A stretch of 64,000 bases of DNA from assembly GCF_013315695.1 (NCBI RefSeq), contig NZ_CP054353.1, one strand, 5' to 3'. The stretch is from Escherichia coli (GTDB lineage Bacteria; Pseudomonadota; Gammaproteobacteria; Enterobacterales; Enterobacteriaceae). Each line of letters begins with the position of its first letter. Position 1 is the stretch's first letter. Below are positions 6,029 through 62,757 of the stretch, piece after piece. The notes beneath the pieces were generated by a model. It was not told the origin of the DNA, ran no database searches, and worked only from the letters and a program-made list of their open reading frames with translations. A program made the translations under genes and the position numbers.

Positions 6029-6037
6029 AACGATGTC
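6029..6037. repeat. IS1 copy 1 target-site duplication, left (AACGATGTC)
   Basis: Identical 9-mer directly flanks the other end of the element at 6806-6814. Confidence 0.9.
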
Positions 6038-6092
6038 GGTGATGCTGCCAACTTACTGATTTAGTGTATGATGGTGTTTTTGAGGTGCTCCA

Positions 6093-6368
6093 GTGGCTTC
6101 TGTTTCTATCAGCTGTCCCTCCTGTTCAGCTACTGACGGGGTGGTGCGTAACGGCAAAAGCACCGCCGGACATCAGCGCTATCTCTGCTCTCACTGCCGT
6201 AAAACATGGCAACTGCAGTTCACTTACACCGCTTCTCAACCCGGTACGCACCAGAAAATCATTGATATGGCCATGAATGGCGTTGGATGCCGGGCAACAG
6301 CCCGCATTATGGGCGTTGGCCTCAACACGATTTTACGTCACTTAAAAAACTCAGGCCGCAGTCGGTAA
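6093..6368 (+). CDS. insA: IS1 InsA (transposition inhibitor / N-terminal part of InsAB' transposase), 91 aa
   Basis: ORF translation [37 protein letters not shown]... matches IS1 InsA as I recall it. Confidence 0.95.
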
Positions 6369-6790
6369 CCTCGCGCATACAGCCGGGCAGTGACGTCATC
6401 GTCTGCGCGGAAATGGACGAACAGTGGGGCTATGTCGGGGCTAAATCGCGCCAGCGCTGGCTGTTTTACGCGTATGACAGGCTCCGGAAGACGGTTGTTG
6501 CGCACGTATTCGGTGAACGCACTATGGCGACGCTGGGGCGTCTTATGAGCCTGCTGTCACCCTTTGACGTGGTGATATGGATGACGGATGGCTGGCCGCT
6601 GTATGAATCCCGCCTGAAGGGAAAGCTGCACGTAATCAGCAAGCGATATACGCAGCGAATTGAGCGGCATAACCTGAATCTGAGGCAGCACCTGGCACGG
6701 CTGGGACGGAAGTCGCTGTCGTTCTCAAAATCGGTGGAGCTGCATGACAAAGTCATCGGGCATTATCTGAACATAAAACACTATCAATAA
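6287..6790 (+). CDS. insB: IS1 InsB reading frame (joined to InsA by -1 frameshift to make the transposase), 167 aa
   Basis: ORF translation [21 protein letters not shown]... matches IS1 InsB. A6C slippery motif at 6344-6350 lies in the insA/insB overlap. Confidence 0.93.
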
Positions 6791-6805
6791 GTTGGAGTCA
6801 TTACC

Positions 6806-6814
6806 AACGATGTC
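6806..6814. repeat. IS1 copy 1 target-site duplication, right (AACGATGTC)
   Basis: Matches 6029-6037 exactly. Confidence 0.9.
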
Positions 6815-6960
6815 AAGTAGATAAAAAAGGATAGATTTTGAATTCATTTGGCTTATCAGTCCGAATTCAGACAAATATAAACAAATCCCGCTTAATATTA
6901 AAATATACTAACTGGTAAAAGATATTACTTAAACGTGTAATTTCACTTTCTTTAAACAAC

Positions 6961-7030
6961 AAAAAACCGCCAAAATCAGGCGGTTATTTGTTGCTGGTTT
7001 GGTTCGCGGCCTTTCCAGCAGGTTCACTTG
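6961..7030. repeat. Intergenic repeat module, copy B (includes a terminator-like hairpin at 6961-6992)
   Basis: AAAAAACCGCCaaaatcaGGCGGTTATTTGTTGCTGGTTTGGTTCGCGGCCTTTCCAGCAGGTT is near-identical to 5917-5980. Confidence 0.75.
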
Positions 7031-7285
7031 TGTTGCATGAACAACGCAGGTGCCTCACAGCAAAAGAATACTCGCTGTTAAGAAATTTTGTGTCAAGTAA
7101 AAAACGAGTAATTATTTTTCGGTTAGCGTATTATTGACACCGACCCTTTCCGCCGTCTCGCAAACGGGCGCTGGCTTTAGGAAAGGATGTTCCTTGGCCG
7201 TAAATGCAAGTGTATCTCGTCGCTTGCTATCGCGGCAATATCGCCAGTGGTGCTGTCGTGATGCGGTCTTCGCATGGACCGCACA

Positions 7286-7411
7286 ATGAAGATACGGTGC
7301 TTTTGTATCGTACTTATTGTTTCTGGTGCGCTGTTAACCGAGGTAAATAATAACCGGAGTCTCTCCGGTAACAATTTATTGGTGGTTAACAACCTTCAGA
7401 ACAGCAGGTAA
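7286..7411 (+). CDS. Hydrophobic small ORF inside ryfA, 41 aa (45 aa from ATG at 7274): MKIRCFCIVLIVSGALLTEVNNNRSLSGNNLLVVNNLQNSR; candidate TimP-like small membrane toxin
   Basis: Open frame translated by hand. One predicted transmembrane helix. Lies within the terminated transcript. Weak ribosome-binding site. Below the 60-aa cutoff of the ORF track. Confidence 0.4.
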   Translation: MKIRCFCIVLIVSGALLTEVNNNRSLSGNNLLVVNNLQNSR

Positions 7412-7417
7412 GCCCGA

Positions 7418-7444
7418 ATGCCGCCCTTTGGGGCGGCATATTTT
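7418..7444 (+). terminator. Intrinsic terminator of the ryfA-like transcript
   Basis: ATGCCGCCC(tttg)GGGCGGCAT followed by ATTTT; overlaps the sseB stop codon on the other strand. Confidence 0.75.
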
Positions 7445-14674: not shown

Positions 14675-14785
14675 TGCTCTATAAACTCCGTACATCACTC
14701 AATGCAAGGAACCAGGCTGCCGGCTGGATGTACGACCGTGTTTACGGAGTGTTTAGCACTCCGGCCTGATTCTGAATTCTTTTTA

Positions 14786-24999: not shown

Positions 25000-26211
<1,212 letters not shown>

Positions 26212-26286
26212 CCAGGATAATTAGCGAATATCTCAACTCCTGGGGCGTGGCGAGGTGCCAGAGTGTGTATTACGTTTAAATCACAT

Positions 26287-26295
26287 TATCTTGCA
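26287..26295. repeat. IS1 copy 2 target-site duplication (TATCTTGCA)
   Basis: Identical 9-mer at 27064-27072 directly flanking the other end. Confidence 0.9.
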
Positions 26296-26310
26296 GGTAA
26301 TGACTCCAAC

Positions 26311-26814
26311 TTATTGATAGTGTTTTATGTTCAGATAATGCCCGATGACTTTGTCATGCAGCTCCACCGATTTTGAGAACGACAGCGACTTCCGTCCCAG
26401 CCGTGCCAGGTGCTGCCTCAGATTCAGGTTATGCCGCTCAATTCGCTGCGTATATCGCTTGCTGATTACGTGCAGCTTTCCCTTCAGGCGGGATTCATAC
26501 AGCGGCCAGCCATCCGTCATCCATATCACCACGTCAAAGGGTGACAGCAGGCTCATAAGACGCCCCAGCGTCGCCATAGTGCGTTCACCGAATACGTGCG
26601 CAACAACCGTCTTCCGGAGCCTGTCATACGCGTAAAACAGCCAGCGCTGGCGCGATTTAGCCCCGACATAGCCCCACTGTTCGTCCATTTCCGCGCAGAC
26701 GATGACGTCACTGCCCGGCTGTATGCGCGAGGTTACCGACTGCGGCCTGAGTTTTTTAAGTGACGTAAAATCGTGTTGAGGCCAACGCCCATAATGCGGG
26801 CTGTTGCCCGGCAT
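26311..26814 (-). CDS. insB: IS1 InsB reading frame, 167 aa
   Basis: Identical protein to the 6287..6790 ORF. Confidence 0.93.
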
Positions 26815-27008
26815 CCAACGCCATTCATGGCCATATCAATGATTTTCTGGTGCGTACCGGGTTGAGAAGCGGTGTAAGTGAACTGCAGTTGCCATGTTTT
26901 ACGGCAGTGAGAGCAGAGATAGCGCTGATGTCCGGCGGTGCTTTTGCCGTTACGCACCACCCCGTCAGTAGCTGAACAGGAGGGACAGCTGATAGAAACA
27001 GAAGCCAC
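26733..27008 (-). CDS. insA: IS1 InsA, 91 aa
   Basis: Identical protein to the 6093..6368 ORF. Confidence 0.95.
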
Positions 27009-27063
27009 TGGAGCACCTCAAAAACACCATCATACACTAAATCAGTAAGTTGGCAGCATCACC

Positions 27064-27072
27064 TATCTTGCA
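27064..27072. repeat. IS1 copy 2 target-site duplication (TATCTTGCA)
   Basis: Matches 26287-26295. Confidence 0.9.
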
Positions 27073-27084
27073 AAGGGATTGGTT

Positions 27085-27507
27085 ATGAACACACTACGTT
27101 ATTTTGATTTTGGAGCTGCCCGCCCCGTTTTGTTATTAATTGCCCGTATCGCCGTGGTCTTAATTTTCATTATTTTTGGTTTTCCCAAAATGATGGGCTT
27201 TGACGGTACGGTCCAATATATGGCCTCGCTGGGCGCGCCGATGCCGATGCTGGCAGCTATTATTGCGGTAGTTATGGAAGTGCCCGCCGCGATATTAATC
27301 GTGCTTGGCTTTTTCACCCGTCCGCTGGCGGTGCTGTTTATTTTCTACACGCTGGGTACAGCGGTAATTGGTCACCATTACTGGGATATGACCGGCGATG
27401 CGGTTGGGCCAAATATGATTAATTTCTGGAAGAATGTCAGTATCGCTAGCGCATTCCTGCTGTTGGCAATTACCGGGCCGGGGGCGATTTCTCTCGATCG
27501 CCGTTAG
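27085..27507 (+). CDS. yphA: DoxX-family inner membrane protein YphA, 140 aa
   Basis: ATG at 27085 with AAGGGA 6 nt upstream; four predicted transmembrane helices. Confidence 0.88.
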
Positions 27508-45137: not shown

Positions 45138-45323
45138 ACAACAAAGCCGGGAATTACCCGGCTTTGTTATGGAATAAGGCGGTGCCTAACTCGACGTTTC
45201 GCCCGAGGGTTGATATAGCTACGCTGATATCAGAAGTTGGACGGCAGGCACCTTGTTGTGCGTCATTCGAATTTTATGTAGCACGTCCCGAAGGGGCTGA
45301 CATAAGTCGGTGAATGAGCCACT
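45138..45323 (-). ncRNA. glmY: GlmY small RNA
   Basis: Minus-strand sequence AGTGGCTCATTCACCGACTTATGTCAGCC...AAAGCCGGGTAATTCCCGGCTTTGTTGT matches GlmY as I recall it; terminator hairpin at the 3' end; lies directly upstream of glrK. Confidence 0.85.
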
Positions 45324-54520: not shown

Positions 54521-54595
54521 TGTTGGAATCGTGTGCTGCACAAAATTAAAGTTGTAAAGTGAACCCCCCCGTTCCTTACCAGTTCGGGGGTTTTA
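54521..54595 (+). ncRNA. ohsC: OhsC antitoxin small RNA (boundaries approximate)
   Basis: Promoter TTGTAC-N18-CATAAT; the 19-nt element TTGGAATCGTGTGCTGCAC at 54523-54541 is a direct repeat of 54274-54292 in the shoB leader, giving antisense pairing; intrinsic terminator at 54564-54594. Confidence 0.7.
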
Positions 54596-54619
54596 CTTTA
54601 TAAAGAGAACGGTATTTTT

Positions 54620-56482: not shown

Positions 56483-58095
<1,613 letters not shown>

Positions 58096-58293
58096 TCAGC
58101 ACACGAAACAGACCTGATATACATGGCTCTGCTAACTGCTTCGCTGCAGTTTCAGTTTACCGGTATATGGGGACCAACGCTGTTTCGTGTGCCGTGGCAA
58201 CCTGGAGGTGCCAACCTTAAACTTCGGGGGAATATTCTATACACAACGACGGGGGATGTCGTTAGCCACGGGAGATTTATCTCATAAATAATT

Positions 58294-59327: not shown

Positions 59328-61127
<1,800 letters not shown>

Positions 61128-61324
61128 AAAGTATGATTATTGTGCCTTAATGCCCGGTTAACCAGGCTTTTAGAAGTCGCTGTTCTGAGCTTAACGTCTG
61201 TATTAATAGAAACGCCGCATTCTACACTACAACATTGAGGCGAGGAAATGTTCATACCGTATGGATTGTGGTATCTGGAAACGTCCTCGCATTTGTTATG
61301 CAAAATGCAACAAAGCCAGTGAAA

Positions 61325-61804
61325 TCACTGGCTCGCGTCTTCCGAAGATGTTTCAAATCGCACAAGGCCAGGCGGCAAGGCCACGCTTAAGATGATCGGT
61401 TGCCATTCTGCCCGGGCAGCAAACTTACGCGAGTAGCCACGTGCAATCAGGAATCCACCAACGCCACCGAGAATCGCACCGCATAATGCTGCAATATCTG
61501 AAGCAAAGAGTAGCTGAAATAGTGAAGCGATGAGGAATAGTCCCACCAACGGCGACATATAAACCAGTAATGCGGAGCTAAGCAGGCTGCCTTCGGCGAT
61601 TCCTAATTCTACTTTTTGCCCCGGCACTAACGGTTCATCACAGGGTACGACAATGGTATGCGTAGTTTGCGGGCCAAGTTTATTCAACACGCGGCTACCG
61701 CAACCGGCGCGTGAAGCGCAGCTGCTGCATGAGGCTTTAACATCACAACTAACCAGCGCCTGCCCGTTTTCCCAGGAGACGACGGTAGCCCACTCTTTGA
61801 TCAT
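61325..61804 (-). CDS. rseC: SoxR-reducing system / sigma-E regulatory protein RseC, 159 aa
   Basis: Synteny downstream of rseB; 4-bp overlap. Confidence 0.92.
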   Translation of the reverse strand: MIKEWATVVSWENGQALVSCDVKASCSSCASRAGCGSRVLNKLGPQTTHTIVVPCDEPLVPGQKVELGIAEGSLLSSALLVYMSPLVGLFLIASLFQLLFASDIAALCGAILGGVGGFLIARGYSRKFAARAEWQPIILSVALPPGLVRFETSSEDASQ

Positions 61805-62757
61805 TGCGCTGCCCCGAACTTAATATTCTCGGCAATGCGTTTCGCCGTTTGCGGCGGCAGTTCACCGACAATGGTGATTTCGGCGTTATCACGTACGCTT
61901 GTACTGACGGTTCTGCGTCCGGTGCGCAACATCTGATCGGTGCTCGATGGCGTAGCGCGGTTAACGTTTACCGAAAAGCTGAATAATCCGTCGGAATAGA
62001 GACGTGATTCGATAGGCATGTTGTCCATCGTCGGTAGCGGACGTCGACTACTGGAAACTTCGCTAAAACCCTGTGGCAACCAGGTTGGCGTCCAGCTGAA
62101 TTTAGCTTTTTCACCTACAGGAACAGAAAGCAACGGCGGCAAATTTGCCTTCGCCAGCGTCTGCATACTGCTGCTGATATCCTGATTGACATTAAAAGCA
62201 ATCACGCGAAATTGTTCCAGCGTTTCACCATCGCGATCAAGGAGATCAACCCTCATCGGTAATTTCGATTCGGTGTCCATCCACACGATGTAGCTGTAGC
62301 GTGTACCATCTCGGGCAACCACGCGAATAACTTCGCAAAGACGATCAGCAATACGCGTGCGCCCGACGGAGATAAAGTCGTAGTAAGGAGAAAGGCGTTT
62401 GAAATCGGTATAGATGAGCGATGGCAGAGAATCAACAATGTAATCGCCATTAAGCGTGAACGGTTCAAGTCCCGGTTCAAAATAGCTGATCTCATTGCCG
62501 CGCTGTACCACTTCCCGGCGCGGGCCATCCATTTGCAACAATTGTGCAAGAGGACGGTTATCGAGGCGTGCATGTCGATAACGCAGAGACTCAACACCCT
62601 GTTTATTGATGCTGATGAATGACAGCTCGTAATTCAGTGACTGACTGGCCAGGTTCATCTGCTGTAATAACGCCCCGGACGCGGGAGTGGCCGAGGCGTT
62701 AGCAGAGAATAACAGGCTACCTGTCACTAATGACATGGCAAACCAAAGTTGCTTCAT
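61801..62757 (-). CDS. rseB: Sigma-E regulatory periplasmic protein RseB, 318 aa
   Basis: Signal peptide MKQLWFAMSLVTGSLLFSANASA. Confidence 0.95.
   Translation of the reverse strand: MKQLWFAMSLVTGSLLFSANASATPASGALLQQMNLASQSLNYELSFISINKQGVESLRYRHARLDNRPLAQLLQMDGPRREVVQRGNEISYFEPGLEPFTLNGDYIVDSLPSLIYTDFKRLSPYYDFISVGRTRIADRLCEVIRVVARDGTRYSYIVWMDTESKLPMRVDLLDRDGETLEQFRVIAFNVNQDISSSMQTLAKANLPPLLSVPVGEKAKFSWTPTWLPQGFSEVSSSRRPLPTMDNMPIESRLYSDGLFSFSVNVNRATPSSTDQMLRTGRRTVSTSVRDNAEITIVGELPPQTAKRIAENIKFGAAQ

Follow-up and report, generated by a model that had tools for sequence, protein, structure and literature searches.

IS1 upstream of yphA: a recent insertion that probably lowers expression of an RpoS-dependent Escherichia coli gene

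In the Escherichia coli isolate studied here, an IS1 element stands between hcaD, the last gene of the hca operon, and yphA, a gene encoding a DoxX-family protein. This arrangement raises the question of where yphA transcription would now come from, given that the DNA in which a native promoter would be expected lies on the far side of the element. A sequence-only reading of the same DNA had proposed that the native promoter was displaced and that yphA would depend on read-through from IS1 or on a hybrid promoter formed at the IS1 end. The window, to which all coordinates refer unless K-12 is named, is the whole stretch of DNA that was analysed, 64,000 nucleotides in length.

Structure and recency of the insertion

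The region from hcaD to yphA contains the following features:

25009-26211, plus strand: hcaD, last gene of the hca operon (open reading frame; annotation in identical sister genomes)
26287-26295 and 27064-27072: left and right copies of the target-site duplication TATCTTGCA, an exact 9-bp direct repeat
26296-27063, minus strand: complete IS1, 768 bp (terminal inverted repeats; identity to the copy at 6038-6805)
26296-26318 and 27041-27063: the two IS1 ends, IRR and IRL respectively (inverted repeats)
26311-26814, minus strand: insB' frame, 167 aa (open reading frame; NCBIfam transpos_IS1, 145.6 bits)
26733-27008, minus strand: insA, 91 aa, repressor and N-terminal part of the transposase (open reading frame; NCBIfam IS1 and zinc-binding domain matches)
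27029-27056, minus strand, read from 27056 to 27029 and so away from yphA: IS1 transposase promoter (PIS1/P-IRL), CTGCCA-16-TATGAT (promoter scan; PWM 8.25 bits)
27073-27078, plus strand: Shine-Dalgarno-like AAGGGA of yphA (read from sequence)
27085-27507, plus strand: yphA coding sequence, intact, 140 aa, DoxX-family inner-membrane protein (open reading frame; RefSeq annotation of identical sister loci)

The hcaD stop codon is separated from IS1 by 84 nt. On the other side, the IS1 end at 27063 and the yphA ATG at 27085 are where the sequence-only reading had placed them, with the duplicated 9-mer and AAGGGA alone between them; the gap of 21 nt (27064-27084) is completed by a 6-nt spacer.

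The element is assigned to the IS1 family by its length and inverted repeats, by insA and insB' with an A6C motif, and by a 9-bp duplication together with an empty site in other genomes. Its terminal inverted repeats are imperfect (26295-26318 and 27041-27064), the 24-nt arms being 79% complementary. The two halves of its transposase score 91.3 and 145.6 bits against NCBIfam transpos_IS1, and the A6C frameshift motif AAAAAAC is found at 26757-26751 on the minus strand, inside the insA/insB' overlap. Copies of the IS1A/IS1B type in RefSeq genomes differ from this one by 1-6 mismatches, and the probability that a 9-mer such as TATCTTGCA would match by chance at two fixed positions is about 4e-6. 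Furthermore, the published location of PIS1, which overlaps IRL, agrees with the site at 27029-27056, and the published anatomy of IS1 fits as well (PMC12428005).

The state of the locus before insertion is preserved in close relatives. Positions 1-25000 of the window are 100% identical to E. coli AF3, from a blood culture in the UK, and to MSB1_4I, from a rectal swab in Australia, and in both of these genomes yphA comes directly after hcaD. When IS1 and one copy of the repeat are taken out, the remaining 2,642-bp stretch from hcaD to yphB is an exact substring of AF3 and MSB1_4I; MS 21-1 also has the exact empty site, with 100% identity over 575 bp. Because the reconstruction without IS1 matches these genomes exactly, the insertion is a clean transposition event and an assembly artefact is dismissed. 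When 5,426 complete E. coli genomes were searched for the IS1-yphA junction itself, no other genome had it, and the exact 36-nt junction pattern was absent from the metagenome contigs scanned. Since the sister genomes keep the empty site and the junction occurs nowhere else in the genomes and metagenomes searched, the insertion is, on these comparisons, precise, very recent and isolate-specific.

A second IS1 is present at 6038-6805, 100% identical to the yphA-side copy and in the opposite orientation, with its own duplication AACGATGTC at 6029-6037 and 6806-6814. Given the complete identity of positions 1-25000, this copy is common to AF3 and MSB1_4I. The two inverted identical copies (window 6038-27063) bracket about 19.5 kb holding the isc operon, suhB, csiE, hcaT and the hca operon; if the copies recombined with each other the segment would be inverted, and alternatively the pair could act as a composite element. 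No rearrangement has yet taken place between them, because each keeps its own matching target duplication. The IRR end of the 6038-6805 copy lies about 20 bp upstream of an Rfam match to the IS128 sRNA (6825-7003), near ryfA (7140-7444), and may also have displaced the promoter of this sRNA. Elsewhere in the window, Rfam matches at gathering level correspond to AsrC (61009-61840), rncO (58011-58225), ohsC (54522-54599), GlmY (45176-45323) and the iscRS element (14676-14785), a K-12-like content that is expected for this region.

The displaced promoter block of yphA

The sequence-only reading had allowed for the case that yphA is normally fed by read-through from hcaD only, and this case is contradicted by natural variation at the locus. 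Indeed, hcaR-hcaEFCBD is wholly missing in about 1,060 of the 5,395 complete E. coli genomes compared, while yphA is kept in them beside the oppositely oriented hcaT. In these genomes a 369-bp spacer separates hcaT from yphA, and homology to hca-positive strains begins only about 83 bp before the ATG. As some 1,060 genomes retain yphA without hcaD, its transcription cannot normally come from hcaD read-through; and since yphA is kept there with just that upstream DNA, the gene has a promoter of its own in these genomes.

A phylogenetic footprint of this upstream DNA was made with the regions preceding yphA orthologues in 52 distinct Enterobacteriaceae genomes, in which the upstream neighbours are many and different. 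It shows a single conserved block, TGGC-N12-TTGTGTATTA-NN-TTTAA, with the core TGTGTATTA (optionally preceded by T). The G of GTATTA within the block is situated 40-43 nt before the ATG across the 52 species, regardless of the neighbouring gene. Between the block and the ribosome-binding site the 52 upstream regions display no conservation, and a purine-rich stretch at the Shine-Dalgarno position recurs in the orthologue alignments. In the window the block and its parts are:

26247-26279, plus strand: displaced yphA promoter block (phylogenetic footprint of 52 distinct upstream regions; start predicted)
26247-26253, plus strand: -35-like GTGGCG/TGGCGA
26264-26272, plus strand: invariant TGTGTATTA
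26271-26276, plus strand: candidate -10, TACGTT
26277-26279, plus strand: TAA

The candidate -10 follows the pattern TA(c/g/a)(g/c/t)(T/g)T, of which the first two letters and the last are invariant, and the TAA after it is conserved too; the -35-like TGGCGA or GTGGCG lies 17-18 nt upstream of TACGTT. Position -13 of the same block is T, not C, and TATTAC is possible as an alternative reading of the -10. The reading that best fits the conservation is TACGTT as the -10 followed by TAA, as in sigma-S promoters. It places the predicted yphA start at about 26283-26285, which is about 12 nt short of the point of insertion and would be 23-25 nt from the ATG in the uninterrupted locus. The native block scores 3.96 bits with a rough sigma-70 matrix, and so weak a score is as expected for an RpoS-dependent promoter.

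In order to place published K-12 regions on this locus, we used an offset between U00096.2 and U00096.3 which we take to be about 1,976 bp, and this value is consistent with the neighbouring sigma-70 region, which then falls on the hcaR/hcaE promoters. Placed in this way, the ChIP-chip regions SigS_588 (2671214-2671601, U00096.2 coordinates) and RNAP_1250 cover the hcaD-yphA intergenic region of K-12, with no sigma-70 region there (PMC3923258 supplement). Moreover, yphA is among the top 100 RpoS-dependent genes of EDL933 in stationary phase, with a WT/rpoS ratio of 135 (PMC2907692), and in Sakai its induction accompanies the entry into stationary phase (PMC2241611). A start site for yphA was looked for in the supplements of Peano 2015, Cho 2014, Kim 2012 and the EDL933 Cappable-seq paper, none of which lists one. 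The K-12 gene, b2543, is 495 nt long in the older annotation used by Kim et al. 2012 and 423 nt in the current one; the Klebsiella orthologue is likewise 423 nt, and the 495-nt version would begin inside the conserved promoter region.

The displacement of the native promoter that the sequence-only reading had proposed thus agrees with the position of the block and with the published sigma-S and RNA polymerase regions, which cover the intergenic DNA. The whole conserved block lies to the left of IS1 under either reading of the -10, and the predicted promoter would now be 777 bp further from yphA than in the native arrangement. Judged from the predicted start, IS1 probably sits in the 5'UTR of yphA.

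Several other readings of the conserved DNA were considered. The block has no Rfam match and the orthologue alignment has no consensus RNA structure, hence it acts at the DNA level. Pairing of TGGC with the region of the start codon was dropped, as positions -2 and -3 show no covariation. The interpretation of TGGC as part of a sigma-54 promoter failed on the distance from GG to GC, which is wrong, and on the second element, which is unconserved. CRP and LexA sites, considered for TGTGTATTA...TCACA, were likewise rejected because the half-site spacing is 12 instead of 6 and there is no ACAG. In the case of CATTAT (26284-26289), its use as the native -10 was rejected given that its position is unconserved outside Escherichia. 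The conservation of TGTGTATTA exceeds what a plain -10/-35 promoter needs, and in Escherichia and Klebsiella the motif and TAAATCACA together make up a partial dyad. From this pattern the block may perhaps also be an operator for a regulator; as a promoter/operator block of yphA across Enterobacteriaceae it is apparently undescribed so far.

Routes of transcription to yphA

We regard it as probable that IS1 in the AT-rich leader causes a regulatory knock-down of the RpoS-dependent yphA through IS1 polarity. By this account a single recent transposition would have brought IS1 into the leader about 12 nt past the predicted start and 21 nt before the ATG, and the intact sigma-S-dependent block would fire into the IRR end of the element, antisense to insB' and insA. 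RNA begun at the displaced promoter or in the hca operon would reach yphA only after 768 nt of untranslated IS1 sequence, and Rho-dependent termination within IS1 would cut it short. At its yphA-side end the element offers a -35-like hexamer with no usable -10, the transposase promoter pointing the opposite way. Indeed, the read-through from the IS1 transposase transcript that had been suggested earlier is impossible, since insA, insB' and their promoter (27056 to 27029) are all on the minus strand and are read toward hcaD.

Polarity in either orientation, brought about by Rho-dependent termination, is a classical property of IS1, and the gal and lac leader mutations are classical polar IS1 insertions between a promoter and its structural genes. 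The yphA insertion is like them in that IS1 separates a promoter from the coding sequence served by it, with Rho-dependent termination expected in the untranslated IS1 RNA; it is unlike them in that its polarity is presumed from that class, the comparison being drawn from general background. From 26320 to 26680 the plus strand of IS1 is rich in C and poor in G, a composition that could be called rut-like, although this is suggestive only. From the structure of the locus together with the literature, loss or strong reduction of stationary-phase yphA expression is likely. The sequence-only reading had stated in general terms that IS1 insertions can activate or silence adjacent genes; silencing is the part that is relevant here, and the net effect is probably silencing.

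The closest documented parallel is osmB in ST131 E. coli, where IS1 lies upstream of this RpoS-dependent gene, no hybrid promoter is formed and the transcript is about 4-fold lower (PMC8764528). At osmB as at yphA, the element immediately precedes a gene under RpoS control, and the IS1 -35 finds no -10 at the proper spacing. The gene and the lineage are different, however, and the osmB transcript was measured, whereas the yphA insertion is known from sequence and is probably located past the predicted start. At the yphA locus, stationary-phase transcription running antisense to the transposase genes might also dampen the activity of this IS1 copy; the suggestion is made by analogy with Machida et al. 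1983.

The alternatives to the polar knock-down turn in part on two plus-strand features at the yphA-side end of IS1:

27009-27038, plus strand: weak candidate outward promoter inside IS1, TGGAGC-18-TACACT (rough sigma-70 PWM 5.3 bits, 99.9th percentile of the window)
27050-27055, plus strand: outward -35-like hexamer TTGGCA in IRL, 8 bp from the IS1 tip (read from sequence)

Expression of yphA from signals carried by IS1 itself, either those at 27009-27038 or an inward promoter reported at the IRR end, is unlikely; it would be low and constitutive, not induced by RpoS and possibly repressed by InsA. Promoter activity has reportedly been found at both IS1 ends by Machida et al. 1984, and the ribosome-binding site and start codon of yphA are intact. 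The score of the 27009-27038 candidate is above the 3.96 bits given to the native block by the same sigma-70 matrix, and further weak plus-strand candidates close to IRR (26300-26339) reach 4.8-4.9 bits with the rough PWM, but none of these candidates attains the threshold of 9 of 12 used in the consensus promoter scan. TGGAGC-18-TACACT overlaps the transposase promoter of the other strand and reads through IRL, and from this position it could be an outward IS1 promoter under the control of InsA. Its TACACT, however, overlaps the IRL/PIS1 region to which InsA binds and which is repressed when a cell has many IS1 copies (PMC12428005), and the sister genomes hold at least about 39 places that match IS1. 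A transcript begun at the IRR end would still have to cross the polar body of IS1.

Efficient read-through across IS1 from the displaced promoter and the hca operon, which would leave the regulation of yphA essentially unchanged and make the insertion neutral, is in our judgement quite improbable. It is true that the plus strand of IS1 has no convincing intrinsic terminator, with one weak 5-bp stem at 26923-26937, that no terminator-like fold was found between hcaD and yphA (z = -0.44), and that one IS1 insertion is known to have left the downstream ugd unchanged (PMC8764528). Set against these points are the 768 nt of untranslated RNA, C-rich and G-poor on the plus strand, that would have to be crossed, the convergence of such transcription with PIS1, and the polarity of IS1 in both orientations that belongs to the classical literature.

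As to the hybrid promoter, IS1 fusion promoters of this kind reportedly go back to Prentki et al. 1986. Those of afaA in ST131, acrEF and blaTEM-6 share their outward -35-like hexamer, at 8 bp from the tip of IS1, with yphA, where a hybrid of the IS1 -35 with a -10 in the flank would activate the gene as it does for afaA, blaTEM and acrEF. The outward -35 in IS1 ends works only with a -10 at the right distance (PMC8764528, PMC9330008), and the yphA flank is without one 16-18 nt past TTGGCA, so that the locus is not a member of this class. The hexamers 16, 17 and 18 nt past TTGGCA (AAAGGG, AAGGGA and AGGGAT) have -10 scores of -5.1 to -3.5 bits, the candidate hybrid promoters at the junction reach 1.1-1.6 bits over the whole PWM, and the consensus scan of the plus strand of the junction gave no match. 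A hybrid promoter at the IS1 end, although proposed by the sequence-only reading, has not formed and its activation of yphA is highly improbable, as these hexamers overlap the yphA ribosome-binding site and a start there would fall at or after the ATG, without a ribosome-binding site.

Other IS1 insertions at yphA and their meaning

At least 7 separate IS1 events were found in the 0.5-kb yphA locus among complete E. coli genomes. Three boundaries fall within 10 bp of each other in the leader, namely those of the window isolate, EC24 and CE12-1. In CE12-1, IS1 has the same orientation and its boundary is 10 bp downstream of the window's, with the duplication AGGGATTGG and 11 nt left before the ATG. 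EC24 also has IS1 in the same orientation, with a boundary 6 bp downstream of the window's, and the far side of the element adjoins an aadA resistance region, not yphA. In E308-type strains, GN25 and AR_0081, IS1 is found in the yphA coding sequence at CACGCTGGG, after nt 273. The IS1 variants at this site are set apart by 6 to 52 of 768 nt, with flanks that are different as well, hence these are independent strikes on one 9-bp target. ECCWS199-type strains have IS1 at yphA with an adjacent deletion. In B27 the element occupies the CACGCTGGG coding site the other way round, and a deletion extends as far as yphG.

These alleles share their target gene with the insertion in the window but differ from it in their duplications and positions, lying mostly in the coding sequence at CACGCTGGG, and its junction is shared by none of CE12-1, EC24, the E308-type strains, GN25, AR_0081, the ECCWS199-type strains and B27. 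An orientation bias of IS1 at yphA was also considered; it stands at 6:1 after the reverse-orientation search that found B27 and is not significant. The leader at 26264-26295 is about 72% A+T by manual count. According to a passage in a review that cites the IS1 specificity study of Zerbib et al. 1985, some elements prefer A/T-rich targets (PMC9330008), and insertion into this A+T-rich leader fits the preference as it is worded in that passage. It seems rather unlikely that yphA is more than a chance victim of IS1, whether by repeated selection for its loss in IS1-rich gut and poultry lineages or as a structural hot spot made up of the 33-bp block and the coding-sequence site. Such a hot spot could arise through a bound regulator or a nucleoid protein.

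The yphA insertion is a further instance of a well-understood kind of mutation and a routine IS polymorphism. Its general value is small, given that the uncoupling of a gene from its promoter by IS1 has been textbook knowledge since the 1970s and that yphA is without known function. The points worth pursuing are only the near-isogenic sisters, the recurrent targeting of yphA by IS1 and the conserved upstream block. The isolate and AF3 or MSB1_4I make a natural near-isogenic pair, identical over 2.6 kb around the site except for IS1, and this pair is usable for the study of IS1 polarity on an RpoS promoter and of the phenotype of a DoxX-family protein. For the Enterobacteriaceae more widely, the conserved block upstream of yphA may prove more useful than the insertion itself.
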